Part shown: positions 5,908 through 43,929 of the stretch, one piece after another | Numbering within the stretch: position 1 is the stretch's first letter | Layout: every line of letters starts with the position of its first letter | Source: Amphiscolops sp. MND2022 | Taxonomy: Eukaryota | Length of the DNA stretch: 64,000 bases | Assembly: GCA_964187785.1 (NCBI GenBank) | Contig: OZ076418.1 | Location: forward strand, 14,384,001-14,448,000 | Direction of reading: 5' to 3' | The notes under the pieces: model-generated | Database searches by the model: none | Told to the model about the DNA's origin: nothing | Seen by the model: only the letters and a program-made list of their open reading frames with translations | Translations under genes and position numbers: made by a program

Positions 5908-6630
5908 TTATTTTTGAACTTGTTTCTTGGATTTCGAGAAGCGGACTGTGGCGAGGAAATTCTTGATTTTTTGGTCTTGTGACGCTATTCCGTCAGGAGT
6001 GATGGTTCTTCCAAGGAATTCAACTTGTGTTACTCCGAAGTGGCATTTTTCGATGGTCAATTTTAATCCTGCCTTTCTGATGCATTTGAAGACTGCTCTG
6101 ATTTTTTTGATAAGTTGTTCCGTTGTATGCGCGGCGATTCCAATGTCATCTACATACTGTGCGCACTGGTCTGCTTTGATGACCGAGTCGAGATATTCCC
6201 GCATGAAACTTGAAAATGCTGACATGGCTCTGCTTAATCCTTGGGCCAGGCGACGATAGGCAAACGTCCTACTAGCAAAGTTAAAAGCAAGTAATTCTAC
6301 TGACCTTTGATCTGCCATTTGAAGGCAGTGATACGCCTGGGAGCAGTCAAGTTTGCAGAAAAGGTTCTTCCCTGCTAGGTGTTGTGCCGCATCTGAGAGG
6401 GTGCTGACTGGATGGTTGTTATTGATGTTGTCGTCGGCTATGAGTGCGTTGATCTTCCGTAGGTCCACTAGAAGTCTCAGTTTGCCGTTGGGTTTCCGTT
6501 GCGCGAATATTGGGCTGGTATATTTGGGGAATGGGAGCGTCGTGATTATGCCGTATTTGTGCATGAGAGCCAGTTCCACTGTTAGATCTTCTTTGAGGTT
6601 GATGGGGACAGGTAGGCTCTGAGTGTACAC
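5908..6630 (-). pseudogene. pol: E0 reverse transcriptase fragment
   Basis: KLRLLVDLRKIN, FCKLDCSQAYH, LAQGL, QYVDDIGIA, KCHFG...EFLG. Confidence 0.95.
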
Positions 6631-6637
6631 TGGTTTG

Positions 6638-9953: not shown

Positions 9954-11324
9954 CTGATTATTCAGAATTGCATCAACTATATATACCTTCTTAGCATCAT
10001 TTGTTCCTCACCTAAAAATTCCTAGGAATCACAAAAATCGGGATTGTTCATACGAAATCTTATTTGATTCAAATTATTTCAACCCTATGTCAACAAATCA
10101 GGATTTGAAATTCCTAACAGCGTCACAAGATCGTCACAATTGTTAAAAATTTTTGTTCATTCACATCTACTTCATGTTTCGCTTTTAAAGGGCTGCAAAA
10201 TAAAAGTCGACTTGAGTATTCTATCAATAAAGGTACGCTGGCGTGAACAATTAGTCAGAATCGAAACCTGAGGTTACCGAAAACCGCGGTGAAAAATATG
10301 ACTAATGAATATGGCGACGCAACTGAGACTCTGTCAACTATACCGATAATGGCTATTATGGAGGAACAAAATTCTGCTAAGATTTCCAATGAATCGGTTT
10401 CCAATTAACAACTTCAACTTGCCTCCAAAAATCGTATATACTACGACATATAACAAATGTAAAATGAGCATCACTCAATACATCAAACTCAGCAATTCTA
10501 TAATCCAACAAAACTAAAATCAAAACATAAAAACTTCTCTGGTACACCAGATTTAAACACATCATACAATTCCTTAGCAAACGTCATAGCAATAAAAACA
10601 ATACATGGAATTGTCTAAAATAGCGTTGACCTATCGTCATTATTATATGAATATAAAGGGAACCGTTTTGTAATTGATCTAGGTGAAGTTATATCATACT
10701 TGACGTTCTATCGACGCTATTTCGAGATTACAACAAAAATTAGGCTTTGGCAAAACACAATGTAAATTCAATTGGAGTTTCGACTTTAAAATCTTTCCCT
10801 TACGACGCAGTCTAATGTTGAAAATTGAAAACACACACTGGGTATCTATTCCTAACTAACGATCACGAAGCGTATTGGTGGAAATCATATCCTTCATTCC
10901 TTAAACCTTAAAGTGTGACGTAGTTTTGACGTACGTATTAAGATTAGTTATAGCAAGCTAGCTGTTTAGTAGAGTTAGAGCGGAGCAACTGCCATTCTTA
11001 AATTCATTTTTAATGACGTCACTAGAACGATTCTCACTAGCTCGAGCGCAAATATGCTGGTTTGCTGTGATGGTATTGATCCATAAATTAGAATTACCAG
11101 TATTTTGTTAGCCTGAGTGACGTTGCCATAACGCTATAAGAGCATACTTAAATTACTTGACTGTAAATCAAGTGGGTTTACTTCAAACACTGAAAACAAA
11201 TCCCCTATACTAATTTAATGTCCTTTTCATTTTAGATCGTATGTATTCCGTTGGGATCGCGGAATTAAATGATATTTTTGATGTTTTCGTTTCAGTGTGG
11301 AGAAGGAAGAAATTGATCCCTGAG

Positions 11325-13045
11325 TGTCGCCGGGCTTCCCCTGCGAGATGTCCGGAGTGCAGCATCGATGATCAGTTCAACATGCTCCTTTCTACCGTCT
11401 GAGACTCGAAGATCCGAATCAAATCATCATCAGTGGTACAGACTTCAAAAACATTTAGAGTTACTTAAACTGAGATAATTGTTTTGAATGTTTGTTCTTG
11501 TTGCTATTTTCTTAGCATTCGTTTGTGTTATAATGTTCGTTAATGTTGAATTGGACGCCTTGTTGCCTCCACTGATTTAATTAAAACAGCGGTTTAACCG
11601 TTGGCAAATCGAAAGAAAAAGAAAAAAAAACTTTGATCAAATAAATTAGTCTCTAGTGACAATGTTACTAGTTGACCCAAGCCGAGCCTTTATTTTTACT
11701 CCCACTTTACATCATAAGAGTGTACTGTAGTTTGAAATAGCTTTCAAAATAATAGAGCATTTGTAGCAAGACTATGTAGGAAGCTTTCATGATCAGCATG
11801 ATGAATTACCCATGAAACAGCATACTGTGCTCATACTTCTTTTCATTGACAGTTTATACTGCTTTATGCAGTTCTTACTAGCATAGCAGTTCTGCCGCAT
11901 ATGCGGCTTTTGCTAAAAAACAGCATGGCGACTACATCCGGGTACACGTTTATACTCCTCACCGCATTATGCGGAAATATCTCAAAACAGCATGATGTTT
12001 AATTCATAATTAACATAATGAACAACAGTGGAACAGTACCGAGGAATTATACTGCATTATGCGGTTTCCATAAAACAGTATAAATGCGGATATACTGACG
12101 GAACGTCATAATCCGCATATTGCTTCTACAGTAATTTACTGATGTAGCTGTGCTATATTTAGACCTTCTAGGGATATGACGTTATGAATTATTTTTAATC
12201 CCTGACCCTAGAAACATGACGTTATGATGATTTGTATAAAATTGATTGTCATGCTACTAAAAATACCACCCAATAGAATCATTCGAAGAGAGTCCCTAAG
12301 AAATCATTTTTCCCCACATTCATTCGAAAAAATCTCACGCAGAACACAGTCACTCAATTTCACAAACTACCCACAGTTCTCAAACTTTGCAGTTTTCTTT
12401 CTTTGTAAAGATAACTTCCACGGTTTCATTTCACCAAAATATCTTTGTAATTCAAAGATTTCTACACTCAACACTGTTTTCATCATGGAAAATAAAAGAA
12501 ATAGACGTTCAAGCAGGATAGAATCTCAGTCATCAGACAGAGAAGAGAATGCTTCAGAAACAAGATTCACTCAAGGTAATGCGACTTTAGTTGATGTTTC
12601 TGAAAATGTTAATAACATTTTTGACAGTAACTTAGGTAGTGAACTGACAGAACCTTCACAAATCAGCAATGAAATAGATGTAATATCCCAGAGATTATTT
12701 TTGAACAAAACAGTAACAAGATGACACAAATTGAACAGCAACTGAATAGTAAATTCGAAGAGATACTCAGAGAAATTAGAACAAATAAAGAAAGCAATTT
12801 GGCAAATGATGAAGAGGATGCCGAGAACACCAGGCCAGGTCCATCTAACTCGAGAAATAGAAGTCTCAGGAGTAACCACGCATCAAATACAACACTAGAC
12901 AGAGACAAAAATCAGGATGATCAGTTTTGCCTTTCTGAAATGAGTGAATTGAGACAACCGTACACACCACTCGGAATTGCTAATGAGACACTAGACGAAA
13001 CTATCATTATAAACGAAAACAGACAGGAGAATGCCGATCATCACA
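11325..13045 (+). repeat. E1 5' LTR (1721 bp)
   Basis: Near-identical to 25510-27215; TG...CA termini; TSD on the outer side and PBS on the inner side. Confidence 0.95.
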
Positions 13046-14154
13046 TGGTGACAGGACCTACCAAGAACATCCTGAGACAAAGCTCTACTAACTCTAACAC
13101 AACAAATACAATTGGACCACACGCAACAACTCTTCTCGAACATCCTGAAACATCAGACCCTGTCAGCCAAATTGCATTAGCAATTGAAAAACTGGCACGA
13201 AAAAACCCAGAACCCTCACTCTATCACCCGAAAAACACACTCACCGTTAACGGTAAATTAGAGAAAAATAAAAAGTTTGAATATTTTGAAGATCTTTTTC
13301 ACACCACACTCAAGATGCAACCTCATCTCACTGAAGAGATGAAAATAAACCATTTTCACGCCCATCTCAGAGGACTGGCGTTAAAAACCTTCAAAAACAT
13401 ACAACGCACACCTACCACAACACTTAAAGACATCTTGGTAGTCTTCCGCAGAAGGTATGACAAGCCTGAATCTAGTGCTTCAGCCAAACATAGATTCAAC
13501 AGGCTTATGTTCCAACCCGAAAACCAGAAGCTGCCTGACTTTCTTGAAGATTTACAAGAGAGTGCTGAAAAAGCATTTGGGGAAGCAGCGCCACAGATGA
13601 TCGAAAGTCTCATATACGCAAAAATGCCTCCCCATCTAAAGAAATCAATCAACCAAGCGTACCTTGAGAATGGTACCTACGACCAAATTGTACGACACTT
13701 AGAACGCGGAATGGAATTCAATGGACTCGAAGCAGATGAGCCCTTAGTCAAAACACAAATGACAGCTGTAAAACAGCAAACTAACACACAAAACAATAAA
13801 AGTTCGACACAAAACACAAAACCTAAAACCAAAACTCCCAACACAGTTCCCAACAACACTCTACAAAACAACCAATGTCGTTATTGCAAAGAAGAAGGTC
13901 ACATGGCGAAGGAATGCCCAAAACTTGCAAAACGGCAAAAACTCGATAACGATCCAGACGCACCACGATGCTCCCATTGTAACACTACAGGACATGAAGA
14001 ACCCAACTGTTACTTTGGAGCTAACATGGAAAATTGTCCACCTAAATGGACACTGACGGAAAATCAAAAAAAACTCATTGAAGAGTATAAAAAATCAAAC
14101 AAACCCATCAACCCACGAAACACGAAACCTTCAACATCGAAGGATTTAAACTAA
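12485..14154 (+). CDS. gag: E1 Gag with two CCHC knuckles; ATG inside the LTR; 2-nt insertion near 12707 frameshifts this copy
   Basis: ATG 12485 (MENKRNRR); ORF 12721-14154 has FEDLFHTTLKMQP, CRYCKEEGHMAKEC and CSHCNTTGHEEPNC. The 3' LTR copy of the N-terminus is in one frame. Confidence 0.93.
13046..13056 (+). other. E1 primer-binding site, tRNA-Leu type
   Basis: TGGTGACAGGA directly after the LTR end; absent after the 3' LTR. Confidence 0.88.
14145..14154 (+). promoter_or_regulatory. Gag-pol -1 ribosomal frameshift site T TTA AAC followed by the gag stop
   Basis: X XXY YYZ heptamer in gag frame; the -1 frame is open from 14145 into the pol ORF at 14607 (154 codons checked by hand). Confidence 0.8.
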
Positions 14155-17100
14155 TAAAGCCACGCCTTCAAACAGAAACACCACAAAAACAACACTCTAC
14201 TGATGACTGGCAGCATCAGTTCAGCCCCAAACCAACAAAAATCACAGTCTTCGATCATAAAACCAACAAAAACGACTCTCACACTACAGACACATCAACT
14301 ACAACTCCAGATATTCAAACGGAGGATCTATATGACCTACTCAAGGATGCTCCTGATAACTACATCCTACGACAAATCTTTGAACCTGCAACCGAAACAG
14401 AAACACAAAATCAACACCCTAACACCTCACAACCTCAAGAAACACAAACCGACCACATAAACACACAATCCACATCAACAACTCAAACCGACAAAGACAT
14501 CACCTCAGAATTAACCAAAACTCTCTTTTGTGCATCACCTGGAAAACAACCCCTCCTTGATAATGATGTTTTCAATCATCTAACTACAGATGAAGTCAAT
14601 AACATCATGTATTTGAACCTTTCTACAAACCTTACACTAAAAAAACGTCATATGTACTATTTCCCAATGGATTTCGAAAAACAAACCCTGGATGGACTCA
14701 TAGATACAGGTGCCTTAACAAGCGCGATTTCAGAAGCTGATCTTAATAAAATCAAACTCTTATCAAATGAAGCAATCAAAGACACTGGACCAGCACCTAA
14801 CTTCCAAATTATGGTGGCAAACGGTCAACTTGAACGCCCCATTGGAACCGTCCTCCTCGAATTCGAGGTAGCAGACTTCCAATTTCAAGAGAATTTCATA
14901 GTAATGAAGACACTACCAAACCCACTTATTGGCCTGTGCTTCCTACAAAGACACAACGCTCTTTTCGATATTCGACAAGGAATTATTACCTTCCCATACT
15001 TGTCAATGCAACTGCGTCCCGAACACACAATAAACACCCGAACAGCAACACCCTTGCTGACTGAAACCACTTATACCCTACATACTGGAGAAACTCTTGC
15101 AATCTCCAGCAAAATGCCACACTTGATAGACCACAATGCAACAGGAATTGTTACTCCGTCATCACACATGGAGGAACATGAGAGCATTTTCATTACCTCA
15201 TCATTAAGCACAATCAACAACAACGCAGTGGGTTACCAAGTGATCAATTTCTCGGATATGCCCTACACCCTTCCAGTGGACACACATATGGCAGATTTCC
15301 GAGTCCTCACACCAGAACAAATCAAACACATCAAACCAGTTGATCCATCAACCCTCACCTTCATGATGCATCAACATATAGAGAACACCGACCTTTACCT
15401 CAATCAACTGATGAAAACAAACCAATCATCTAATGAAATAGAAACGTACTGGTTCCCGACACCTGAGCAACCCGGGGATCCAAAAACATACACACCCATA
15501 AAAAAACGAATTTACGACGAACTACTGGAGCTCAAACAACTTGAACAATTGAACCCAAACGACAACGCACAATCTAGAAAGCAATTCCTTGACCATTTCG
15601 ACTGGACCGACACTACCCTAAGCCCATTCGAAAAACAACACATTGAAGACATTCTGGTGCAATACCATGATATCTTTGCCAGACATCGATTTGATATTGG
15701 CATCAATAGAGAATTTAAGGTTAAATTGACTCCGAATGATGATAGGCCTGCCTACAGTCAAAGTCTCCCTACACCAATCAACCTCAAGGACGACATAACT
15801 GTTGAACTAGCCCTACTTCATCGTTATGGTATCATCACAACTTTACCTTTCTCTAAGTACGCAAGCCCTATTTTCGCCCAGAGAAATCCAAATGGACGCC
15901 TTCGTCTCCTGGTAGATCTGCGCAAAATCAACAACCTCATCACGCAAGATTATGTAAACAACAACCACCCAATTAGCACATTGTCAGATGCTGCACAGCA
16001 CATGGCCGGAAAGAAGCTTTTTTGCAAACTCGACTGCTCACAAGCATACCATTGTTTGAAGATGGCCGACTACCAGCCAATACAAATGCTAGCTTTCAAC
16101 TTCGCAAGCCGAACCTTTGCATACAGACGTCTTGCTCAAGGTCTTAGTCGTTCATTATCCGCCTTCTCTTCCTTCATGAGAGAATATCTAGACAAAGCCA
16201 TCAAGGCTGATCAGTGTGCACAATACGTTGATGACATTGGTATAGCTGCGAACGATTCAACACAACTCTGCATCAACATCAAAACAGTCTTTGAATGCAT
16301 CAGAAATGCAGGACATAAACTTACAATGGCTAAATGCCATTTTGGTGTCAAACAAGTCGACTTTTTGGGACGAACAATAACCCCACAAGGAGTCGCACCA
16401 CAAACCGAGAAAGTCAAACAATTTCTTCAAAAACTCAAATTCCCAAAATCCAAAAAAGCCCTTCAAAAGTATATTGGATTCCTTAACTTTTACCAAAACT
16501 ACATCCCTCGTTTATCAGAAAAACTGTCGCCTTTCTTCAAACTACTCAAAGAAACATCACAATTTTGCATACCAAACACCGTTTTGGACACATTTAAAGA
16601 ACTAAACCAACAACTGGAGAAACCATGCAACCTTGCTCTCAAACAACCACTACAGAACAAACAACTCATTCTGATGACAGCGGCCGGTTTCGCCATCATG
16701 ATTGAAGATGATCCCAACCAAAAACTCCAATCTCGAAGGAAAACCTACGCCCCGATTGCGTTTGGCTCAAAAACGTTCAACCCAACACAACTCAAAATGT
16801 CCATTTACGCAAAAGAATTCTTAGCAATTTATTTCGCGTTTTCCGAATTTGGACACCTAATGTGGGGAAGTATCTTCCCTGTTATAGTTTTCACAGACAA
16901 CCGTTCAGTAACACGCTTCTTCCAAACAAAAATAATACCACCACCCCTCTGGAACGCCTGTGACTATGTACTGCAATATAACTTCGTCATAGCACACGTT
17001 GCAGGAGCTATGAACACAGCTGCCGAATTCCTTTCAAGAGCGGAAGTACACCCGACTGAAAAACTCGAAATGAACATCCGAAATGATGTTGCAACCAAAT

Positions 17101-19122
17101 CAATCGAAGTCATTATTCAGTCCACAGGAGTTGCTGAGGAAGAAACTCTCTACATCCTTCCGGACGAATCCCCCACGGAACAGCAATTGTGGGAAGAGAA
17201 AAACACAATACGCTCTATGGCAAGAACGGAAACCCACAATGATCCAGAAAGCGAAGTGTCAGAACTCCAAACTTTCCATAAACCCACAGCGGGCACAATC
17301 AATTACCGCGAAGAACACTTCAAAGACAACACCAAAAGCCGCTTGGAACAAAACAATGACCAAGTACTACACAATCTCCGATATAAACTTGAAGGTGAAC
17401 CCTACGACGAAACAGAGTTTACGCAAGATTATCGCTACAAACACTATTTACAAATTATTACCAGAATTGAAATCAAACAAGATGTCCTAACACGAAGATA
17501 CTGCAATGATACTGGGATGATATCACATTACCAGATACTTTAACCAAAACAACTACTAGATGAATTCCTTCATGCATTTCATGGACATAACGCAAATCAT
17601 CCTGGAATAACAAAGATGATCCAAGAAGCCCGGCAGAAATATTACTATCCCTGCATAGCCAAATACATTCGAACTTGGGTCACAAAATGCCAAATATGCA
17701 TACAAAACAAACGGATCAATAATGACCTCCTCAAAACCGAACTACTAAAATGTTCTGAATGGGACCTAGGTCCGGAAGATATATTGCAGATGGATATCCT
17801 TCCGAACCTTCCGCCAAGTGGAGGTTACAACAATATAATCACAGCAATAGACGTGTTTTCACGCTATCTGTTTGCATATCCAGTTACAAGAATTACTGCC
17901 CCAGCAGTAGCAAAACTCATTATGGATATCTTGTGCAAACACACATATCTACCCACAACAATCATTACAGATATGGGCACTCAATTCAACTCACAGGTTA
18001 CTAAAGAAGTTGCAGCAGTTCTAAACATAGAACTCAAACACGCAACGACAAAACATGCCCAAGCAATTGGACTATTAGAACGTACCCATGCATCGGTTAA
18101 AGCGCATCTTAAAGCAGCCACTGGAGAATTCAGAAACAACTGGCATAAGTTTCTGCCATTGGCAGTCCTGAACCATAATACAACCTACCATGCAACACTT
18201 GGTTGCGAACCTACACGGGTCTTCCATGGAAGAATACCGCACAATAAACTTGATTTCAAACTTGGGTACAATCCAAACCCTAGATTTCAACCCCAAACTG
18301 AGGTAGCAGAAGAGGTACAAAGACGGATTGCATTACTTCATGACCAAACAAAAAAAAACATTAGGCAATCTTACCTCAGATATAAAGCATACTACGACAG
18401 GAAAACAAAAGCAGCACCTCTTACAACAGGGGACTATTGCTTTATCTTGAATCCGAAAGCAGACACACATGCGACCAAAATACCCTTCAGAGATTTCCGC
18501 TGGGTTGGTCCTTATAAAGTCGAAAAAGTCCTACCAAATAACAATTACATTGTCCGTCGATTGGGCACAAACAAAACCCAATTGCTTCATCGTATACGAC
18601 TACGTATATACATTCCACAAGCACCTCTAGCTGACAATTCTGTCAGAGAGTCTGAATGGCAAAAAGAAGATACACTTATTGCTCAAGATGACCTATATGC
18701 CCACACTTGGGACACAAACTTTGGATCGAGCCCATTTGACACTGACTATGAAATTAATGATCAGCAAGAAGATATGGTAGAATACGAACCTGCTTCTCAA
18801 CCTGGAATAAACCGCCCTCCCTCCCCCCGATAATTCTCAAAACAGTGGGGGGACCCGAGCAGAACAACCTGCTGTGACCGACAAAGAACCCCAGATAATT
18901 GATAAAGCCATTACAAGAAATGAAAATCAAGAGCCCATACCAGAAATTCCAAGAAATCCAGAAACTTCCCAAGAAACCCCAACCCAAAATTCACCAAAAA
19001 CTCCCGAAAATAACCCAGAAATTGATGCACAAGAAACACAAAAAACAGTTAACACGAGAGGTGAAAAGTACAACTTACGCCCGAACCCTAACCCTAACTA
19101 CTCAGACTCATACAGATACTAA
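14145..19122 (+). pseudogene. pol: E1 Pol (protease, RT, RNase H, integrase), disrupted
   Basis: LIDTGA; YVDD; RNase H lacks the TDAS aspartate (LMT-AAGF; E2 has LMTDASFGAAGY); stop/frameshift near 17543-17616; integrase HHCC and QMDILP...ITDMGTQF...LLERTH; C-terminus RGEKYNLRPNP in ORF 18874-19122. Confidence 0.95.
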
Positions 19123-19458
19123 AACAGACAAAATCAAGAGACTCAAAGACTTTAACTAAATACAGTCTCTGTTTGTCTTTTGCTCTCACATCTTTTCTCT
19201 TCATTTTTTCTTTCCCAATCAGTTACTTCGGTAACCGTTTCGAGAATTGATTTACTGGAATCAACAATACTAACTAAACCAAATCAGGTGTAATCAACCT
19301 GAAGCAAAGCAAACAAAGTATACAAAGAACAAAGCAACAAATAAATGGTATACAAGCAACATCGCAATCTATGGAAACAGTAACAACTAGACGTCTCTCA
19401 TTTACCACCGGGAGATGGTCTCTTCTTTATAGACAGTTTCTTCGCAGACTTAGTCTGA

Positions 19459-22400
19459 TCAGGGGCAGAAACGGAACCTCGCTGACAAAGCGCGGAACAG
19501 CCAAAGTAGCAGTAGCCAATTGCAGAGTCTGATCGAAACCTCTTGATGACCCACCGGAAGGCCCAACCGGGATTGGCCCTGGAACAGCAAACTTCGAACT
19601 GGGTAGAGGAGTCTTGGGCGATTTACTAGTAGAAGAAGTGACCCGATGAGTTGGCGAAGAAGAAGTTGAACCAGAAGGTTTAGGATCAACATCCAGAGAA
19701 GTCCATGCCCTTTCTTCATTAGTAACCGTGCAGGTGAAACGGGACTCAAATTTATTCTGTAGTCGTCGTCGGTGAGATGAGCAACTGGAACTAACGTCCC
19801 AAACAGAATAATCGGGATTTTCCAGCAAACTCCTCCCTTTTCCGAGCAAAGAAAAATAGGGGCAACAGTTCTAGGATTGGAAAATAACCCTAAAACGTTG
19901 GGAATGCCGACCAGAGAAGACTGAACACTCCTAACTGCAGAAGTAAAATCACAGTTGTCAGAAGCCAAGTCAGGTAATGCAACGGTGAAAACAGGTGGAA
20001 TGCAAATAGAGCTAGAAATTCCAAGACAACACAATTTGAATACAGAGAATAAATTGGTGCGACATTGGAGCTCATAATAACCGGACATGAAGGTAACCCA
20101 GTCTGTGTCGTACTGTACTTCGCAAGACCTGAACTTCTCAACAAAAGACCGGTACTCACTCAGGATGAGTGGCTTGATGGAACTCGATATCCAGTCCCGC
20201 TGTATGAGGAAATCGCACAATTGGTCTGATTCTTCTTCGTAGTCCTCCTCTCGCCCATGTAATATCACAGCTTCGTCGAAAACAGACATTCCTCGGATAA
20301 GCTTCGACTTGCGGATGCTGTGTTCCAGGAGCAAAGTACATAGACTTTTATAAAAACACAGTGCTTGTTCGACGAAATGGGTTGGCGTCGGTAGGTCACT
20401 CTTATTGACTAAGTCGGCAAAGTCTTTATTGCGAAGAAAATCAGTGACGCTTTTGAAAGGAAGATCTGAAGACAAGTCGATAGATAAGAATCGGTCCCAG
20501 TCAGAGATGTCCCCCAAGAAGGAATCTGGCAAGATAGTCTGGAGCTGACTATACACAAATGTGGCGTAGGAGCTGTAGAGTCGGAAGCCGTCTGAGGCGA
20601 TCCCAGTGACTCCTTTGAAAGCCGATTGGTCTGAAGCAATTTTAGATTAAGAAAAGGAACCAGACATTAGAAGAATGGAAAGAATAGAAAAAGGCTAACA
20701 ATGAAGAAGCACATTCCGTACTAGAAACAACTTGGCGGGATAAGTCTTGTCTTTAAATATCGTCTCATCCAAACTTTTGGGCTGAAACATCAAAGATTGA
20801 CCATTAAAACTATGTTAGAACAACGATATCTGGAATTTCGAAAACGATAATTACCTCTTTCATGTGGTATTTGAAAGCCTTGATCCGGTCAGTGAGACGG
20901 AGATGAGCAACCACATGATGCCAATTCTGGTACAGTTTTCCAAGAAGAATAGCGCACTTGTCATAACTGTATTCGAAGCTACAGATCGCCTAAAAGAACA
21001 AATTCATGCCTGTGAGAACTAATAGCATTGGAATTGAACTTAAGACATGACGCATTATGATGTCTTCCGAGTACAGTATAGAATGCTGAACACCATACAG
21101 CATAGGATATACGGATTAACCGTGAAACCAGCATAATTCAAGAAAAACAGTAGAAAAGAATAAATCACGCTGTTTTTGGAAGAAAACAGTATAAAAGGAA
21201 TAATTACGTCGATCCGGAAAGAAACAGCATAGAAGAAAAGTTCATGCGGTTTCCGGAAAGAAACAGCATAGAAGAAAAGTTCATGCGATTTTCAAAAGAA
21301 ACAGCATAGAAGAAAAGTTCATGCGATTTTCAGAAGAAAACAGCATAGAAGAAAAGTTCATGCGGTTTTCGGAAGAAAACAGCACAAAGAAGCATCCATG
21401 CGGTCTCCGTAAAAGAGTCAGCATAGAAGACAGGTTTATGCGGTTTTGGAAGAAAACAGCATAAAAGAATACTCATGCGGTTTTCGAAAGAAAACTGCAT
21501 AAAGAAGCACCCATGCAGTTCCCGTAATGGAAGGGCATAGAAGATGTGATTATGCGGTTTTCGGAAAAGGTGGCATAAGGAAATACCCACACTGCAAACA
21601 GAATAAAAACATTTTAAAGATAAAATCTATGCAGTTTGCAGAAAACAATGACTATGCGGAGTAGCAGCATAATGAAACGAAGAAACTATGGTCAAGATCT
21701 AACAAAATATGCGGTAATATGCGGTTTTCTGAAGACGTCTTAGGAGTGTTAATTACAGCTAAAAAGGGACATAATATTGGTTAAACAATGCAAATGCTTA
21801 CTTCTCGAAGCTCCTGTAAGTTGTTGAGCCAAGCTGATCCCAAAGCTGTCCGGAGTTTCATCAAAAGAAACTGTAAAACGCTGTGTATTTCATAGCGGTC
21901 CAGGATTTTGATACATGGGCCTGCGAGCATTTTGTATAAATCTTCATAGCCGAAAGTAGCAACGATGCAAATGGGGGTGGATTGGTCCAACTCAGTAGTC
22001 CGTCCATCAAACCCGAGCAGAGAAAACACAGTTCGTGGATTACTTGTAACAGCAAGGAAAGAAGAGATGGCATCGAGGACTTTCGGAGCTGTTTGAAGAC
22101 TGTTGGGAAACTCGGAAAGGCCGAGACTATTGTACACATTCCCAGACCAGAAGGCCAAGTTGACCTGAGCAACTTTAGTCGAGGAAGTGAATTGAAGGGA
22201 ACACAAGCCTCGCTGACCAATAGATGTGGCAGAATATCGTAGTAACTCGTGAAACATGTAGACGAGTATTCCCTGTGAAACATATGAATTAAATGTATGG
22301 TAAATAGATGTCCAACTTAGTCAGATAACGAAAGATACTTACAAAAACACGTTCCTGTCTCCAGTCGTACTGCGGGAATCTAGTGGGCCCCTGATCGTCG

Positions 22401-23597
22401 ACATTCAAATTGGACAAGAGTGAAGTTAATAGGTCCAACTCTCCGCCGGATTGGAGTCCTAACAGGAGAAGCCTCATCTGGAAGCATGCAACTGATGAGG
22501 GATCAAGAATTTCTGTGTCTTTTGGCAACTCCCTCTGTCCTGGCAGCAGGTGACATTCGCCCAAAGTTGGAGTAATTGGAAACGTCTGCTCCGCTTTTTC
22601 TCGAGCTTCGTCTAGAGCAACTCCAGTTATCTCTCGCTCATTTTTGTCATAGAGTGGAAGTACGGCGTTTCTAATCTAATTCGGTGCTCTCGAACCAAGT
22701 GGGCATCGGTACGGTAGTGAGATAAAATTTCGAGTGATCCTTTCGTCTTTAGAGACAATTCTACTTGGCACACTCTACAGCGCCACTTGTGAGGATTCTC
22801 GTTCGGGTCAGCTGGACCTGTGACGAAGAATTTGAACACGGGATGTTTTTTATACATCTGAGCAGAAAGCTGCTTTCGGGGTCTTGGTCTTTTGCTAACC
22901 ACAACTTGTTCATCGGATGTTGTTTGAACCGGGTCAGAAGTTTCGATGTTGTATGAACGCCTGAGAGAGCGTCTTTCCCCGGAGATGTAATTGGAGTCCG
23001 TTCTGCGGCACTACGTCGTTGATTTGTCCGTGTGGATTCACCCCCAGAAGGGCCCGTAGTGGGTTCGGATCTTTCAACAGCGTGCGCAGACATTGATTGC
23101 TCAAGCTTTGTACTGACAAGAGTTTCAAGTCTCTGCTCCAGTGCCTCTAAGTCGGAACTTGTAACAAAATTGCCAAATTGTGTTACTGGAAGCGATTGAG
23201 CATTGGTAGCTGTTTCTCGGCTTTCTTGCTCGGTGGGGGCTGTTACTGCAAGTTGACCCAAGTAACGTGTGGTTGGGGAAGTTCGAGAAAGGGTCCCTTC
23301 CAACATAGGAGTAGTCGCCCGTGAGGAACATTCATCAAGTAGAGTTCTTCTCTCTCCTGCAGGAGCGTTTGGATTGGAACAATCGGGCTGCTCTCCAGTC
23401 ACATCAAGAATGAGATGAAGATTAGAATCGATGGAAGTGGCAAGGAAACTAACAGGTTCTTTGAGACTTGTCATGCTGTGGTCAAACGAGTGTTTGATCC
23501 CGTCTTGGTCAACAGTTACGTTAACAGTTTCACAGAAAGAACGCTCTGGTTCAGGGGTAGATTGATGAAGGGGAGCAACAGACGTCAAAACCGTCAA
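19459..23597 (-). pseudogene. E1 antisense cargo gene: five-exon BED-finger / hAT-transposase-like protein, frameshifted in exon 1 and near the 3' end
   Basis: Exons ~23597-22343, 22272-21802, 20989-20855, 20781-20700 and 20630-~19459. GT..AG introns 22273-22342, 20990-21801, 20782-20854 and 20631-20699 join frames with phases 0,0,0,1. WRCRVC...HYRTDAH finger; FKLCCL motif. Confidence 0.8.
21175..21580. repeat. ~39-bp minisatellite, about 10 degenerate copies, inside cargo intron 2
   Basis: Unit CCGGAAAGAAACAGCATAGAAGAAAAGTTCATGCGGTTT; CCGGAAAG recurs at 21214 and 21253. Confidence 0.9.
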
Positions 23598-24608
23598 TTC
23601 GTTCGAAGATGTTTGTCTCTGGTGAGAGGATTGAGAATCGGTATAGAAGGCGTGAAAGAACTAGAAACAGAAGGCGTGGCAGTTAACGAGAAGGCAAAAA
23701 AGCAAATGGATGACGTCAATAATGGCGTTTTCAGTGTATCTCAAATCTGATTGGTCGAGAGCAAGTACTCAGTTTGGCCATTTCTGAGAGGAATCCATAC
23801 CATATAAGGAAACTGACGGACTCTACGTATTAACACGCAACACACTGCTACAGTGAAAGTGCACTATGCTGTTCTGTATTGGAAACAGCATAATGGTCCA
23901 GCGCTATCGTGAACAACAATGTGTTATAGTATAGAGAAGAAAATGTAACAAGGAAGCATAATGAGATTATGCGGAATTAAAAGTGAAACTGCATAAAGTG
24001 TTTATGCGAAAAAATATCAAAGACAGCATGGTGAAGTAATAATGGAGATATGAGAAATTATGATGCATTATGATGTTTTCTGTAAGCAGTTTATAATGTG
24101 AATCACTACTAATACTGCTGATTTGAATATTACACATTTACAAGTGAAAGAATGAAATTCCACAATTTTGAGAAAGATGATTCATACAACAAAGTGTGAA
24201 ATCTTCACATGATGAATCTGAATGGACTACAACCGTAATGTATTTTGATGATGAGTAATTAAAATTCAGTTACCCTATATGGGGTAGCTACCGGCAATAT
24301 AAGAAAGAAACTCTGAAAATCAACAGTTTTTGATGATCAATTAAAGAAACTCGATGATGCTAGATTTCCATAAATTATTTGATAATTATCCAAAAACCCG
24401 GGAAAAGGGTAACGCGAAAATTTATTGGAGCAATTTTTATAAAACCCATAAACCTACAAAAATCTAGAAAACCTCACCAGTTTGGTCTCAAAGTTTCTGA
24501 AAACAGTTGATCTTCGCCTTACAACTTTCTAATCTTGTAGCAATTCTTGATTCAAAATTGTACAACAATCTGAACCGTTTATACCATTCGATTTGATAAA
24601 ACATAAAA

Positions 24609-25556
24609 ATGAACAGCACACCTGTGGGAAGAAACATTAACACGAGGGACCCAATGTTAATTGACACAGCATTGGACTTGATAAATATCTCCAGTAGCTC
24701 TGAGGAAGAATTTACGGTGGAACGTTTCTCCTTGCCCGAACTAGAAGATAGGTTCAGAGTTGCACCATCATCGATCTCGAACATGCCAACTGCTTTCATG
24801 GGGTCGGCAGCGGCCTCATTATTCGTAACCAATTTAGTTGATGCCAGGTCAACAGGATGTATAGACACAAGAGGAACGTCCATTGAAACTGAGCTGATGG
24901 ATCTACTGAACGACATACCGGATATTTCACCCACAACGTTCATCGATACCTCCGACGAAGAAATGAACCCCTTCCCAGAGGCTAATTTCGCGAATGTACA
25001 AAGGAACGCATATGGTCGCCCTACTCAGAGAGTGTGCCCTATGCCCAGACAGCAACAAGAGACACAACCTCCTAATGCCAACCTACCAACTATACCCAGC
25101 CAAACGAGCGCTTTTACAGCGTATACAGCACCACAGCAGAGAACAACTGACCCGAATCCTCGTCCTACACAGCAAGCACAGTATTTGCCGATGCCCATCC
25201 CGTTTTACCCTAATGCGTGGAACAATGTGGGATATGGGACATTGGGTCAAAATATGCAACCACCACCATCAAGCAACGTTCCCGCCCATAACGGAACCTT
25301 GTTGCAACTGAACCCTCCAGTCATGCCTGAGGTGGCGGGTTATTGCCCAGGTTGCACTAAAACTTATGACCAAATTGCAGTAGAGACATTGACGAACTAC
25401 GTTGCTTGGTCCGAGTATCCTGATGAAACAACCCGCGACAGAAACGTCAGATCAAGGGCTTTTGTGGACGGATTTGGAGCTGCGTTAATCTGCTTCAAAA
25501 ATGCTGGACTGTCGCCGGGCTTCCCCTGCGAGATGTCCGGAGTGCAGCATCGATGA
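24609..25556 (+). CDS. E1 ORF-X: 315-aa Ser/Pro/Gln-rich protein with a C-terminal CxxC domain, ending 47 nt inside the 3' LTR
   Basis: Open ORF; GYCPGCTKTYDQIAVE...RSRAFVDGFGAALICF aligns with E2 ORF 31454-31921. Confidence 0.75.
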   Translation: MNSTPVGRNINTRDPMLIDTALDLINISSSSEEEFTVERFSLPELEDRFRVAPSSISNMPTAFMGSAAASLFVTNLVDARSTGCIDTRGTSIETELMDLLNDIPDISPTTFIDTSDEEMNPFPEANFANVQRNAYGRPTQRVCPMPRQQQETQPPNANLPTIPSQTSAFTAYTAPQQRTTDPNPRPTQQAQYLPMPIPFYPNAWNNVGYGTLGQNMQPPPSSNVPAHNGTLLQLNPPVMPEVAGYCPGCTKTYDQIAVETLTNYVAWSEYPDETTRDRNVRSRAFVDGFGAALICFKNAGLSPGFPCEMSGVQHR

Positions 25557-27215
25557 TCAGTTCAACTTGCTCCTTTCTACCGTCTGAGACTCGAAGATCC
25601 GAATCAAATCGTTATCAGTGGTACAGACTTCAAAAACATTTAAAGTTACTTAAACTGAGATAATTGTTTTGAATGTTTGTTCTTGTTGCTATTTTCTTAG
25701 CATTCGTTTGTGTTATAATGTTCGTTAATGTTGAATTGGACGCCTTGTTGCCTCCACTGATTTAATTAAAACAGCGGTTTAACCGTTGGCAAATCGAAAG
25801 AAAAAGAAAAAAAACTTTGATCAAATAAATTAGTCTCTAGTGACAATGTTACTAGTTGACCCAAGCCGAGCCTTTATTTTTACTCCCACTTTACCTCATA
25901 AGAGTGTACTGTAGTTTAATATAGCTTTCAAAATAATAGAGCATTTGTAGCAAGACTATGTAGGAAGCTTTCATGATCAGCATGATGAATTACCCATGAA
26001 ACAGCATACTGTGCTCATACTTCTTTTCATTGACAGTTTATACTGCTTCATGCAGTTCTTACTAAGCCACATATGCGGCTTTCGCTAAAAAACAGCATGG
26101 CGACTACATCCGTGTACACGTTTATACTCCTCACCGCATTATGCGGAAATATCTCAAAACAGCATGATGTTTAATTCATATTTAACATAATGAACAGCAG
26201 TGGAACAGTACCGATGAATTATACTGCATTATGCGGTTTCCATAAAACAGTATAAATGCGGATATACTGACGGAACGTCACAATCCGCATATTGCTTCTA
26301 TAGTAATTTACTGATGTAGCTGTGCTATATTTAGACCTTCTAGGGATATGACGTTATGAATTATTTTTAATCCCTGACCCTAGAATCATGACGTTATGAT
26401 GATTTGTATAAAATTGATTGTTATGCTACTAAAATTACCACCCAATAGAATCATTCGAAGAGAGTCCCTAAGAAATCATTTTTCCCCACATTCTTTCGAA
26501 AAAATCTCACGCAGAACACAGTCACTCAATTTCACAAACTACCCACAGTTCTCAAACTTTGCAGTTTTCTTTCTTTGTAAAGATAACTTCCACGGTTTCA
26601 TTTCACCAAAATATCTTTGTATTTCAAAGATTTCTACACTCAACACTGTTTTCATCATGGGAAATAAAAGAAATAGACGTTCAAGGAGGATAGAATCTCA
26701 GTCATCAGACAGAGAAGAGAATGCTTCAGAAACAAGCTTCACTCAAGGTAATGCGACTTTAGTTGATGTTTCTGAAAATGTTAATAACATTTTTGACAGG
26801 AACTTAGGTAGTGAACTGACAGAACCTTCACAAATCAGCAATGAAATAGAAGTAATATCCCAGAGATTATTTGAACAAAACAGTAACAAGATGACACAAA
26901 TTGAACAGCAACTGAATAGTAAATTCGAAGAGATACTCAGAGAAATTAGAACAAATAAAGAAAGCAATTTGTCAAATGATGAAGAGGATGCCGAGAACAA
27001 TAGGCCAGGTCCATCTAACTCGAAAAATAGAAGTCTCAGGAGTAACCACGCATCAAATACAACACTAGACAGAGACAAAAATCAGGATGATCAGTTTTGC
27101 CCTTCTGAAATGAGTGAATTGAGACAACCGTACACACCATTCGGAATTGCTAATGAGACACTAGACGAAACTATCATTATAAACGAAAACAGACAGGAGA
27201 ATGCCGATCATCACA
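25510..27215 (+). repeat. E1 3' LTR (1706 bp), carrying an uninterrupted Gag N-terminus copy from ATG 26657
   Basis: Direct repeat of 11325-13045; followed by TSD CTGAG. Confidence 0.95.
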
Positions 27216-27533
27216 CTGAGTTAGGAATGTTATCATTTTGATGTTTAGATCGGTATGGGATTTTCAACAGACGAAACCGGAAGTGGTAAAATCATTGCGT
27301 ATGAAAACTTTAAACCGGAAGTTTCATTTTATCTAAGGATCATTTTTGGCTAAATTACGTTACGCGTACGTCGACAGTCTTATTTAAATCTACTACTTAG
27401 CTATTAGATTGCACCGTAAGTAAGAGTTTCCTAACAAATTACTGCGCCTGGGAGTAACCATGTCCCATTCCTTTTGATTGTCTATGGATGCCATGCTGGC
27501 AGTACATGCACCAGCCGGGAGCGGGCTGTGACA
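27216..27533 (-). repeat. Probable LTR 5' end (TGTCACAG...), possibly the outer part of the E0 5' LTR split by E1
   Basis: TGTCACAGCCCGCTCCCGGCTGG resembles TGTCACAGTCCGTTCCCGAACTGG at 49992; both have an ACCGGAA..AAAATCATT motif ~250 bp further in. Confidence 0.5.
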
Positions 27534-30749: not shown

Positions 30750-31294
30750 TTTATTCAACTTCTTCTGGAGTAACAAACGTTGAGTCCAACACCATCTCCA
30801 TTCAACTTGCATTCATGATAACAATAGAACGGAAGAATGAGCGTTATTTCCGAATAATGCTGCTGATTTTGAATTCAGTGGAAACACAGCATTGAAACCA
30901 GCAGGCACCCTCCGAGTTCTCGTCCTAAGCCCTTAGGATGATTTCACTGGAAATTTATTATAACCAAACAACTGGCCTTTCCATAGAACTATTTTGAGAA
31001 TCTTCGCACCGAACATCCTTATGTTGTTAAATTGTGTTTTCTGGCCACCAGTCTAATTCGTCTAATTCGTCTAAACTTTCAGAGATTATTAGCAAAGCTG
31101 CAGGGTCAAATGTTAAATCAGGTCTGACCTTCTGTGATTTGGAGATAGTTAGGAGGTCTCAGGCAGTGAACATTGACATACAACTTATGATAAGGTTTGA
31201 ATATGAAACGAATCGCTGCAGCTCACCAAAACTTATCCAGAAATTTTTTAAGAAGCTACTCGAAATGCAGAAACGGATAACTGTAAACAGCACC

Positions 31295-31542
31295 TGTCGT
31301 GAACATTACGGTGGTTTTTGTCACCGTGTTCACTGTTGAGAGTAGTTTTAGCTTTCACGTTGTGCTGAACTTCGGAATAACTTTCCGGTCTCTCATCGGA
31401 TCTCTCCCATCCCCTTCTAGTCTCCTGTCTTGAGCCGGCCATAATAACGTCCTCTAATATATTGGTAGAGTTCCGGCCGCTATTTCCTGTCCTTCTGCGG
31501 TAGTAGTGATCCTTGTACCATCACAGGCGGCAGCCTGCGACA
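31295..31542 (-). repeat. E2 3' LTR (248 bp)
   Basis: Direct repeat of 43629-43876. Confidence 0.97.
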
Positions 31543-31921
31543 CTGCGGGTGTTAGGAAAAGTAAGCTTCCTGCGTTCAAGCCATTTTCATAAGCCTCTCG
31601 TCGTAGGGCGGTAATATAAGCGGGCTCACTGCTAGGTGTCGATCTTTGCATGTACCAGTTCACCTTTTCTGCTTTTATTTGATCTCTCGACTTGCCACAT
31701 ACCATACAGCCTGTGTGCAAATTTTGGCTCACATCCTGGTAAGGCTCGATATTTTGCACATGATAGGACGCATAGAAAGATCCAGAGGTTGACTGCGCAA
31801 GAGGGGTGTCAATGCTCGGTCCCCTTTCATGGTCGGGAGGAGACTGTGGGGACTCCAGAACGGGTAATACAGTTGCACAGAGCTCGACTTTTGATTTTCT
31901 TTGTTTTTTCGATGGAGCCAA
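31454..31921 (-). CDS. E2 ORF-X: 155-aa CxxC protein ending 89 nt inside the 3' LTR
   Basis: TGCMVCGKSRDQIKAE...RREAYENGLNAGSLLF; crosses the LTR boundary at ...CCCGCAG|TGTCGCAGG. Confidence 0.75.
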   Translation of the reverse strand: MAPSKKQRKSKVELCATVLPVLESPQSPPDHERGPSIDTPLAQSTSGSFYASYHVQNIEPYQDVSQNLHTGCMVCGKSRDQIKAEKVNWYMQRSTPSSEPAYITALRREAYENGLNAGSLLFLTPAVSQAAACDGTRITTTAEGQEIAAGTLPIY

Positions 31922-31939
31922 GCATATTTCCTTGTTAAA

Positions 31940-32243
31940 TTACTCGAATCCCAGTTTAAGGGTAGAGGGCGGAACAGGCCATGCACTGCTTGGTCCAGCT
32001 GTCATCTCGTCGTCTAAATCTTCCGTCGTCATCCCGCGTCTCGCTATAGGGATTGGAGCTGCTTTCACCTCTCGTTCTATTCTTTCTATGATCTCTTCTG
32101 TATCCGTGGACGGACCAGTCTGAGTCCCAGGAACTTGAGACTTCATTCTCACTGTCACTTGAGATGTAGCTAACTGAATCCACTGAACTTTCTGAGTCTT
32201 CTTCAAGATCAAAGAGCTTTTTAGTTAGGTTATACCTCTGCAT
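31940..32243 (-). CDS. Acidic Ser-rich ORF(s) upstream of ORF-X, in two overlapping frames
   Basis: LFDLEEDSESSVDS resembles the acidic N-termini of E1 ORF-X (LINISSSSEEE) and the E3 ORF (LFDVSSSSEDEEE). Confidence 0.4.
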
Positions 32244-33293
32244 TATGAGTTTCTTAGCAATTTTGCTGATTGGGAAAGTTAACTAGCTTGAGTGAGATTT
32301 CAAAGTGGAATGAACTTACCAACTCAAAAATTTTGTCGACTCGGGCCTTTTCCCGGCAATTCGTTTTTGGCGGTCGAGTTATCGGTAAATCGCCCTGATC
32401 CGACGTGAACATTCCTGAATGGAATTTTATAATTAGTCGGCATCCTTTGATAACTCAGTGTTTACCCCCTATCAGCACCATCACTCTGAGAGGTGTTAAT
32501 GACGCTTGAGTTGTAAATATTATCTTCACCCGTTTCAAGTGGGTAATTAACAGTTTGCCTGAGAGCGATTAACGGCACGCGACGCGGATTTCTTTCAAAA
32601 TGGCTTCAGCCAATCAGCTTTAAGCTTCGATAAATTGCAAAATTAAATAATAAAAATGGCGAAAATAATAAATCCAAGTAATCCAAGTGATCCAAAAATT
32701 CTAACTAAAAGGTAACTAAGACAACTGAACGAAACGGCAAAACAAAACAGGGCAAACGACCATAACCGGCCTCAAACTAAATAAGCTGTAAATAACAAAG
32801 TTCTTTGTACACTTCGCTGGCAGACTCCATGTACAGAATAAATATGTAGATAATCCATAATATTAGTCTGGTAATAATCTTCAGCCACGAACTCCAACTC
32901 TTCAATTGTTTTACATTAAAATTCCAATCCAATTCCATTTCTGATTACTCTACATTTGTTTCTTTTATTTGTATTCATCCAACTGAGATTCATCCTTGTA
33001 CGTCCAGCTCTTCTTCCGTCAGCTCTTCTCTTTGGAATATCCCGGATCTCCTTCTTCAGCCGAACTCGGCCAAGTCCCTTATCCATTACAGCCGAACAAG
33101 GACTCATTCCCTACAATCAGTCTTGCCCCAGAATGTCTTCGTCTGAAGGTTGGTTTGTTTTATTTTTGAACTGAATCTAACTTGATCAGGGTTCAATTTG
33201 TTCACAAAATGCTTCCTGTTTCCGTCAATGATTACGTGATAACGTTTCCATTCAAATTTTCAAGCACTTCCGGAAGTTTTCTAATGCGGTGAA

Positions 33294-36200
33294 ATGGATT
33301 TCTTTCAAGGAAGCTCACCGCCAAATTTCATCTCTTTTTGTTTAGCAAATCAGCCAGGAGATGATCCTCAAGCCCAAGCCAACAATTCAGCAGATATTCC
33401 CAGCGAGCGTGTCCTGACTACTACTTCTGCAGGAGTGTCCAACGTTATCCGTAGGCCGCAACCATCGCCTCCACCCTTCCCACCAACAAGACCTCCGAGG
33501 TCGCCTGGCAGTCCTGACAGTAACGTTGACGTTACTGCGTATGCGGATGAGAAAGTTCTGTTTCTTGAACAAGCCCAGGAACAGGAAGAGGGACAAGTTG
33601 CCAAGGGTTCTGAAATCAGGGAACAGGAGATTGAAGAGAGTGCCACTGAAGGTCCGTCTGCCGCTGGGATTGAACCCCAAAATTCTACATTGTTTTTCCA
33701 AACTAGCACTCCAACCAAGAACTTGCCCAGTGAGTCTGCAGGGCTGAATTTAACACAACTAGAAGTCGGTCTAACGATTGCTCCCTCCTCTCTGACGGCA
33801 TTGCCAGAGTTGTTGACAACTTGCGGAACTTCTGCCAACGTGTCAGCAGCGTCATTCCTTCAGCATGAGACTGATGAGAGTTCCTCTGTATGTGATGCCC
33901 CCAAACTGCCAACGGGAGTCACGGATGTGATATATTTGGACGACGTGACTGGGACTGAGGAAGCCGGTGACACATCCAGCCAGGCAAGTGGGCCTGCCCT
34001 ATACAATTTCCAGCCAGTAGGAAATGTGACTGAAACTGCAGGAGAATCATCAGTTGATACTTCTATCCATCGTCCCGATATCATGCGTCCGTCAACGTCA
34101 ACGTCTGCAGGGCAAGATTCCAAAGTCAGGGAGCTCTCCGGCCGCAGCCGGGCCATTTTAAAACAGTACTTTGATGAGGATGCTACCACCATCAATTTCC
34201 CTCTCGGCCATAGAACAGTGGCTTTTACTGAGCCACAAGTATATCATCTTTTGAGAGTTCTTACTGATGAGACGTTGAAAATGTCCTATACTGCCTTGGA
34301 ACAGATGGTGATTGGGGCAGTTCGCGGAGCGCCGGTCACTTCCAGTTCCCGAACTGATCATTTCCGAGTCAGGCCAAGAGCCCAAACTCCAGGACCTGGT
34401 CTGCATAGCGATTCTGAAGACAGCTCACGCTCTGAGAATTTTCCTGAATCGGGAACCGATACGTCTGCTGGATCAAGTTCAGGGCAAGAAGACAGAGGGC
34501 TGGACTCCTGCAACGATACTGATAGTTCTGGGGAGATGGCTCTCATCTCACAGGCCTTCAAGGAGCCTTTCAGACCTGCTTCAACTTCCCGCAAAACTAC
34601 ACAAGACGATCCCTCTCAAGCAGGCTTTGAATCTGCGGAGCAGTCAAGCCTTGATGCCACTCTTTCTGAGTTGCGGACTCAAACTTCTCCCGCCCCGCCT
34701 TTGGCTTCAAGTTCGGGTAAAGCGCCCAAAAGGAAGCGACGCAAGCAGACTCGAGGTGTCCCTATGAGAGAGGAGTTCTTCTCTAAGATCGGTTGGACGC
34801 GCTCATTCATTTCCGGACCAGCAGATCCCCTTCACAATCCAAATATGGTGTGGTGCCATATATGCAAAAAGAATATCTCCGTGAAAACTAAGGGGACTTT
34901 AGAAATCTTGCGACACCACAGGACTGAGAAGCACCTCCGACGGGATCAAAGATGGCGCTACGAGCACCTTAAAAGCGTCCACTCCGTGTCTGGAAAAGTG
35001 CAACAACGAGTGAGAGGCCGTAATGGGAAGATCCTTTCAGAGATAGAGTTGGCAAAGGAGATGCGCCACTTCATGCACGTCGAGCTGGTGGACATCGGAG
35101 AACGCTTCCCTTTTTATGATGATTTCATAAAAGGTACGTCAACCACACTTGTCACCCCTGAATCAAGAGCCAAGACGCAGATCCATCTCATCGGGAACTT
35201 CGTACAACAACTTGGAGATATTGGAATGCTCCGCAAATTGTGGTCCCAAATAGGCTCTTTGACCAATTACCAGATCAGCTACTGCGACTTCGATTGGGGC
35301 GAGGAAAGAATTTCGGTAAGTTCTCTTTTGAGTTTGCGTACTGCTTGAGGGAGGCTAAAGCCCTCCACACATTTCGTAATCCTCCTTTTCCTTTCCAGGC
35401 CATCTTCCAGCACATTTTCAATTGTGCAATGAATGATTTAGCGGAGCAGATTGCTACCACACAGCACTTTGCCATCGAGTTTGAGGATGAGGGCGTGAAC
35501 AGACTCAAGTCTGTCAAATTCTGGAAGGGCGACACTCTCTGTCGAATCTACGTGTGCCGGAGTGGGCTTCCTTCCTCTGATCTCACTGGGGAGCTAGGGT
35601 CTCTTTCCCGACTTCTCTCAGTAGTGTCCACCAAGGCCGATATAGTTGCTTGCTCAGGATGTCCAGTGGAGCTGATCCAGACTATCGACCATAATGCTTT
35701 CTTCCCTCGGGCTGTCCAGAGTTGCTTTCGCTTCGAGCACCTGCAGCTCCCGAAGATGATGCACAAGCCAACTTACAGTGTGTTTGGCAGAATAGACTTC
35801 TTCTCTGTTCTGAAATGCCTCACGGTTTCACTTGGAGCAGCTACTGGCGAGGACTGGGTCCTGCAATCCCCTGAGCTAGCACAAGTTAGTATATTAAGTT
35901 CAAACATAAGGCGCAAAGGGTCAGGGGGTAGGTACGGGCAAAAGACAATTTGGGTTCATTTAGGCCATTGATACCTGCAAACTGGACTTGCCGAGTTTAC
36001 CCAACCTCTGCCGGGAACTCGTAAAACATTGGAAGGCAGTCAGGCAGTACTTGACATCACACACTCCACATCAAGGAATGCAGGGCGTCCACAATCAAGT
36101 GCAGAGTTTCGAGTGGTCTCTCATCTGCGACTCTTTCTTCGTCGTCAAGTTGGAACTCTTCCAACGCATAATCAGTGATTGTGAGTATAACGCTACATGT

Positions 36201-43876: not shown

Positions 43877-43929
43877 GCACCCTACATTGACCATTTTTCC
43901 ACAACACTGGAAAAGTAGCATTTCGTCCA

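Follow-up and report, generated by a model that had tools for sequence, protein, structure and literature searches.

Open reading frames (ORFs) antisense to gag and pol have been described in long terminal repeat (LTR) retrotransposons of the plant Retand/Tat gypsy group (Grande, RIRE2, Retand), where they lie between pol and the 3' LTR and where tandem arrays also occur (PMC11963269, PMC7264820). The antisense ORFs of Retand carry the TRP28 domain (PF04195), reportedly restricted to flowering plants, and introns are not described in the accessible sections of these papers (PMC11963269, PMC7264820); where such extra ORFs of LTR elements come from and what they do is there called unknown (PMC7264820). 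The present analysis concerns a 64,000-nt stretch of the genome of Amphiscolops sp. MND2022 (contig OZ076418.1, positions 14,384,001 to 14,448,000, forward strand; hereafter the window), which contains the LTR elements E1, E2, E3 and E0. As claimed by an earlier note on this DNA, E1 and E2 carry a homologous gene, here called the cargo, on the strand opposite to pol; it ends within about 150 bp of the pol end. The sequence comparisons described below indicate that it is almost certainly a conserved, selected, multi-exon antisense gene. Antisense extra ORFs were known before; what is new here is the spliced, conserved-intron, hAT-like and cassette-exchanged version, and no report of this combination of features was found within a limited searchable coverage of the literature.

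Judged against the available parts of the Retand literature, the likeness lies in an antisense gene placed at the pol/3' LTR boundary in most copies, in the tandem arrays, and in predicted DNA binding and a predicted nuclear role. In contrast, three to five conserved introns, the absence of TRP28, an hAT-like architecture, the exchange of the gene as a cassette and a divergent second gene set the present family apart. Retroelements normally strip introns, and antisense placement lets this family keep a multi-intron gene; with hundreds of copies, intron retention, exact loss and module exchange become countable. The parts of the cargo genes in the window are the following.

23644 to 23655, no strand: E1, about 630 bp deleted here, with the start exon and its intron
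22343 to 23644, minus strand: E1 long exon, with low-complexity N-terminal part, basic patch and finger; two frameshifts
22273 to 22342, minus strand: E1 intron 1, 70 nt, phase 0, between DWRQERVF and GILVYMF
21802 to 22272, minus strand: E1 exon 2, 157 codons (162 in most copies)
20990 to 21801, minus strand: E1 intron 2, 812 nt, phase 0, between LQELRE and AICSFE
20855 to 20989, minus strand: E1 exon of 45 codons
20782 to 20854, minus strand: E1 intron 3, 73 nt, phase 0; missing from E2 by exact loss
20700 to 20781, minus strand: E1 exon of 27 codons plus 1 nt, equal in length in four clades
20631 to 20699, minus strand: E1 intron 4, 69 nt, phase 1, split codon Tyr
19400 to 20630, minus strand: E1 last exon, helical, with a weak likeness to the hAT C-terminal region
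33294 to 37496, plus strand: E2 cargo, exons 33294-35315, 35399-35884, 35964-36180 and 36337-37496
35316-35398 (83 nt, phase 0), 35885-35963 (79 nt, phase 0) and 36181-36336 (156 nt, phase 1, Tyr), plus strand: E2 introns
58324 to 60426, plus strand: third cargo paralogue (E3), decayed, its finger at 52280-52666, beyond an insertion

All introns of E1 and E2 are of the GT..AG type, four in the conserved part of E1 and three in that of E2. The three junction pairs proposed in the earlier note exist, with equal phases, and align at offset 0; the two small E1 exons, which it had predicted, are genuine and jointly measure 217 nt, exactly the length of E2 exon 35964-36180, so that E1 has a fourth intron that E2 lacks, as the note implies without saying so. 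Spliced alignment of E2 peptides to the DNA of E1, run blind, found intron 1 and no other. The E1 copy is decayed and no longer under selection. It has four frameshifts, one in the interval of about 22980 to 22850 and the others near 22660, 19850 and 19463, and it lacks the start exon, which is seen in nine relatives; in this clade that exon spans 13-20 codons and is followed by a phase-1 intron of about 300 nt. The frames of E2 are open, its final codons being altered by a deletion near 37475. The third paralogue was located by a hidden Markov model built from the filtered copies described below. The insertion splitting it contains an array of units of about 54 bp in both orientations (CCAGGAGCGTT core; 53359-54967 and 57072-57111), which form long inverted repeats.

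The wider family was sampled with a 27-base finger pattern run over the 1.07-Gb assembly, which gave 704 matches as against 3 for the reversed control. Eighty genomic loci of ten kb (L-numbers) were fetched, 40 from ranked protein matches and 40 chosen for variety among the first 100 finger-pattern matches, the sample being similarity-chosen throughout. Filtered for no more than five breaks and for junctions in the standard phases, these loci together with E1 and E2 gave 59 copies, namely 33 E1-like (clade 1) and 26 E2-like (clade 2), 55 of which also have a near-complete pol; the loci filtered out were fragments, strongly decayed or without a match. A second fetch added 20 loci from the E3 clade and 8 from the E0 family, and the four-clade cargo alignment comprises 40 sequences.

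Profile alignment of the E1-like and E2-like copies (23% identity, E 9e-49) places four junctions at offset 0, so that the spliced proteins, aligned with their intron marks as the note had suggested, have homologous junctions. In alignments of single exons, the top score of each exon is with the equivalent one (exons 1, 2 and 5 at E 5e-19, 1e-8 and 4e-11), exon 3 being weak (6e-4) and exon 4 not significant, and in the four-clade alignment the intron marks fall within one column. All four clades have introns 1, 3 and 4, and only clades 1 and 2 have intron 2, with exon lengths of 162, 45 and 27 codons in these two clades and of 207 (162 + 45) and 27 in clades 3 and 4. With exon ends fixed by the peptide match alone, GT follows the exon in 76 of 76 cases and AG precedes it in 66 of 76, across 20 cargo lineages, with few matches at adjacent codons. 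The cargo dN/dS (ratio of nonsynonymous to synonymous divergence) is 0.07 in 24 pairs and 0.09 in 4 pairs. The selection for splicing that the note had assumed is supported by the low dN/dS and by splice sites retained in lineages that are strongly diverged at silent sites. The clade-3 cargos of L223, L226 and L230 (bases 1865-2800) have apparent extra small N-terminal exons, absent from clades 1 and 2.

Of the 26 clade-2 copies, 15 have lost intron 3 exactly; they form two groups, which by the codons around the lost intron are allied to different relatives that keep it. Intron 4 is exactly lost in 7 of 26 clade-3/4 loci, in one group per clade. In all, exact intron loss occurred at least four times. 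The longest junction repeat of all intron classes is that of clade-2 intron 3 (4-5 nt in four of five lineages), and intron 4 has none. Where no repeat is present, a copy of spliced RNA accounts best for exact loss, and such loss would be an indirect sign that splicing takes place; the losses may reflect recombination with such a copy of the message or slippage at a short direct repeat. The two mechanisms, cDNA-templated and repeat-mediated, become testable here, one intron class being lost at repeats and another without them.

Trees of reverse transcriptase (RT), integrase, pol and cargo all yield four clades with the split (1,2 | 3,4), so that the gene was very probably gained once, in the remote past, as the note had supposed. 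Cargo identity is 18-20% between clades and 42% between clades 3 and 4. The cargo is antisense to pol in 26 of the 28 loci of the second fetch, and 6 of the 8 E0-family members have it; the clade-4 elements L236 and L242 lost it through different deletions, L236 keeping ORF4 (see below) and LTRs that are 99.5% identical. The nearest relatives of one cargo-less element appear to be full-length, judging by spacing.

The vertical inheritance with gag-pol put forward in the note holds between the four clades and fails within them, RT and cargo phylogenies being congruent among clades and incongruent below that level. Below clade level, 22 of the 37 cargo splits with support contradict the pol tree, and in both clades tested approximately unbiased (AU) tests reject the pol tree on cargo data and the cargo tree on pol data (p <=0.002). 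Silent sites are saturated in most cargo pairs (355 of 406, and 248 of 325) and the silent distance of pol never exceeds 1.6; in clade 2 the two distances are uncorrelated (rho -0.03, 325 pairs). In L054 and L040 the silent divergence (dS) of pol is 0.003 and LTRs, gag-pol and ORF4 are 96-100% identical, while the cargo is 65-82% identical or unalignable; L037/L055, L044/L106 and L071/L072 have identity profiles of the same shape, eight pairs in clades 3-4 combine a near-identical backbone with a divergent cargo, and L064/L065 are the converse case, with similar cargo and differing pol. No exchange was seen across the four clades. Since pol is also partly mosaic (RT versus integrase), recombination is general in the family, the cargo being distinct by the age of its alleles, about 20 of which, deeply diverged, are found among the 55 copies. 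Assembly chimeras are an unlikely source of the recombinants because these occur at several loci. It can be held with high confidence that the cargo is swapped between related elements as a cassette.

As for the protein, the best-conserved part is a C2H2 (BED-like) finger (in E1 near 22660-22850), with CxxC invariant in the 40 sequences, the His pair conserved at 90-100%, and a zf-BED match below the cut-off in 7 of 34 sequences. The sole acidic residue among the 19 invariant columns sits within it. The exon at 21802 to 22272 of E1 is predicted to form a helix, a three-stranded sheet and a helix, with a weak match to the catalytic domain of Hermes, and the C-terminal part resembles PF05699/FAM200 clusters in Atlas (0.91-0.92, a weak match). 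Three separate weak signals are directed at hAT proteins, in the correct N-to-C order. The likeness to hAT transposases (Hermes, PDB 2bw3) and to FAM200/GTF2IRD2-like proteins extends over the finger, the RNase H-like start, the helical part and a dimerisation-like region, in each case through weak matches; differences are the long disordered N-terminus, the lack of a conserved DDE triad in the 40-sequence alignment, where a GFD motif is kept in clade 1 only, and the absence, by eye in comparison with hAT proteins, of an ERxFS-type motif downstream of the conserved KL. From these resemblances, the cargo probably derives from an hAT transposase that lost its catalytic residues. This gives an antisense extra ORF a candidate origin, and for one clade there is also a candidate target motif. 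Weighing against this origin, sequence comparison with hAT proteins, including those of the same genome, found no detectable similarity, Pfam scans gave no cargo match at the cut-off (TRP28 being likewise absent, and PF05699 unmatched in 25 members), and sequence searches of PDB with the cargo returned nothing. No long inverted repeat was found near the cargo, in a scan not aimed at terminal inverted repeats or an 8-bp duplication. The genome itself is rich in hAT elements, with at least 150 PF05699 matches (L166-L185), two of them with long open frames and DDE-like motifs.

A second gene, ORF4, stands divergent to the cargo, and a short motif recurs around both.

24609 to 25556, plus strand: ORF4 of E1, 315 amino acids, on the sense strand, with a CxxC domain, ending inside the 3' LTR
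31454 to 32243, minus strand: ORF4 homologue of E2, in two frames
23656 to 24608, no strand: spacer between cargo and ORF4, 5 motif copies

ORF4 is conserved in clades 1 and 2. It measures 258-320 amino acids and extends 44-103 nt into the 3' LTR (loci examined: the window, L062, L066, L070, L071, L074, L091, L107, and the extended L217, L221, L236 and L241). It has no Pfam match. At the place of ORF4, clades 3 and 4 have an ORF with a similar hydrophobic-acidic motif, which near the start of ORF4 resembles a SUMO-interacting motif (SIM-like). ORF4 travels with the LTR and not with the cargo, and the spacer is a putative two-way promoter. Clusters of an ACAGCAT-type motif were found in the LTR, in cargo intron 2 and in the spacer of 10 of 10 clade-1 elements; intron 2 of E1 holds 17 copies against a shuffle maximum of 4, the counts in its LTR and spacer being merely near the shuffle maxima, and no shared motif was seen in nine clade-2 elements. 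Within intron 2, a tandem array at 21141-21563 consists of units of 38-40 bp with inverted GCAT..ATGC arms. Across lineages the array is more alike than the exons (median 82% over about 350 nt; 83-96% in L037/L055). Its units, in E1 and in the equivalent introns of L037-L061, could fold into hairpins on either strand, and it is homogenised among cargo lineages that are otherwise saturated.

Described systems offer a model for what such a gene may do. In the plant VANDAL elements, the target motif of VANC21 has amassed in non-coding DNA, and binding and demethylation were shown there (PMC5735166, in its accessible part). As far as the available sections allow the comparison, the likeness is that of an intron-containing accessory gene of a transposable element and of a motif amassed through tandem repeats in the element's own intron, intergenic and terminal DNA (here in clade 1); the differences are that VANDALs are Mutator DNA transposons, that VANC resembles MAIN (PMC13547354, which in the part consulted also lists other accessory domains of LTR elements), and that here the motif layout is read from sequence alone and leaves out clade 2. 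Transposase-derived regulators, namely TnpA of Spm, AtMu1 transposase and FAR1/MUSTANG, have likewise lost the DDE triad, retained DNA binding and regulate cognate elements; unlike the present case they serve the host or their own DNA transposon, retrotransposons not being covered in the accessible portion of that source (bioRxiv 10.64898/2026.08.24.746577). In the present family the domestication would have crossed classes, with a class II enzyme taken over by a class I element.

The HBZ gene of human T-cell leukaemia virus 1 (HTLV-1) is spliced. It is also an antisense nuclear regulator at the 3' end of an LTR element (PMC11963269, accessible part); in contrast with HBZ, the cargo protein is unrelated, exceeds 1,000 amino acids and is multi-exon, and no env is present.

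The proposed explanation is that an intron-bearing hAT transposase gene inserted backwards between pol and the 3' LTR of the family ancestor. By its orientation, the introns are antisense in the genomic RNA, remain unspliced there and, for that reason, survive every reverse transcription, and a promoter between cargo and ORF4 may yield a separate spliced mRNA. The finger, the exon lengths and the splice sites are under purifying selection, with no invariant acidic residue beyond the finger. The protein would bind the short repeated motifs in the LTR and non-coding DNA of the element, and its disordered N-terminus may recruit or block chromatin factors. Old cargo alleles have been transferred to other LTR/gag-pol backbones by recombination whose breakpoints lie at the two ends of the gene; the route would be gene conversion or template switching between RNAs packaged together. 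On these grounds, it is predicted, though tentatively and at somewhat less than even odds, that the cargo acts in the nucleus as a DNA-binding regulator and sustains transcription of its own element. The complete reading, namely that an LTR family domesticated a DNA-transposon transposase, introns included, as an anti-silencing factor, with dozens of ancient alleles forming an exchangeable cassette under frequency-dependent selection, ORF4 as a SUMO-binding partner and intron losses recording spliced RNA copied back, is on the doubtful side. If the regulator reading is true, VANC/TnpA-style counter-silencing would extend from plant DNA transposons to LTR retrotransposons.

A protein that represses its own element, or blocks elements with another allele so that rare alleles are favoured, would fit the many diverged alleles moving across backbones, as expected under frequency-dependent selection, and self-encoded restriction is reportedly known in Ty1; however, the family is abundant and recently active, given its 704 finger matches and LTR pairs of 97-100% identity, and its divergence is purifying, without an excess of amino-acid change and with the finger conserved best, which makes self-restraint unlikely. 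The ancestral role of hAT proteins in end binding and dimerisation, the basic patch with the finger and the absence of a purine-rich tract ahead of the 3' LTR in any clade could point instead to a dead transposase scaffold that helps integration, as a tether to chromatin, in nuclear import or in place of the polypurine step, and nuclear roles have been proposed for plant antisense ORFs (PMC7264820, in its accessible part). Such a role is less probable still, since the motif arrays lie deep inside the element (intron 2), away from its ends, and an integrase partner would be expected to co-evolve with pol, against which the cargo is exchanged freely.

The negative comparisons listed above favour a captured host zinc-finger gene or an unrelated protein, which would leave anatomy and history unchanged; in view of the three ordered hAT-directed signals, and with no donor gene outside LTR elements among the fetched, similarity-chosen loci, an origin of this kind is also rather improbable. 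A single capture followed by strict co-descent of cargo and gag-pol, the form given in the note, can call on the four-clade congruence and on 29 clade-1 pairs with near-identical cargo (median pol dS 0.08), but the within-clade conflict and the lack of correlation in clade 2 refute it below clade level and leave it a very slight chance. Finally, the many broken copies, E1 included, and two fetched elements without the gene might suggest a nested transposon remnant that merely hitchhikes; a dN/dS below 0.1, splice sites and exon lengths kept at about 20% protein identity, and the full-length appearance of the relatives closest to one cargo-less element contradict it, so that passive carriage is hardly credible.

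The elements themselves are laid out as follows.

11325-27215, plus strand: E1, LTR retrotransposon with gag and protease-RT-RNase H-integrase
11325 to 13045, plus strand: E1 5' LTR, TG..CA ends, a primer-binding-site-like TGG start directly after
12673 to 14154, plus strand: E1 gag, with CCHC knuckle
14091 to 19122, plus strand: E1 pol, split over three ORFs that cover protease, RT, RNase H and integrase, with a stop at 17541-17543
25510 to 27215, plus strand: E1 3' LTR, 7 motif copies, no purine-rich tract ahead
31295-43876, minus strand: E2, gag and protease-RT-RNase H-integrase, TG..CA ends, 5-bp target duplication
5911 to 6675, minus strand: RT of the truncated element E0

E1 is flanked by a 5-bp target duplication (11320-11324 and 27216-27220) and its LTRs are 97.2% identical. 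With direct TG..CA LTRs, a short target duplication and gag followed by protease, RT, RNase H and integrase, E1 and E2 are of Ty3/gypsy type, as assigned by LTRs and domain order. Gag has a DUF1759 match below threshold. The note had stressed a very different LTR and a divergent pol in E1; the pol divergence did not stand (79% identity with E2 in RT, 61% in integrase; the E3 integrase is 53% identical to those of E1 and E2), and the LTR contrast did in part. The two E2 LTRs (31295-31542 and 43629-43876, about 250 bp each) have one internal deletion of about 1.7 kb in common, so that the short form was probably copied during transposition; full-length LTRs of clades 1 and 2 are nonetheless also unalignable. 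No polypurine tract was found, by eye, ahead of the 3' LTR in any clade, because ORF4 runs into the LTR. An errantivirus-like env was considered and rejected: the E2 cargo exons and E1 ORF4 show no transmembrane segment (top 19-residue hydropathy 1.1-1.3), and the cargo is antisense.

E2 lies within a unit of a roughly 3.1-kb repeat (30984-31294 and 43874-49674), which goes on at 46577-49674 with 93-97% identity. Positions 1-5900 of the window, adjoining the truncated E0, include about 4 kb with a strongly negative GC skew that reaches -0.46. Among the extended clade-1/2 loci, 18 of 20 have a separate LTR pair, one has none and one is a tandem duplication; tandem elements or duplicated cargo segments are found among the extended loci L037, L052, L080, L100 and L216.
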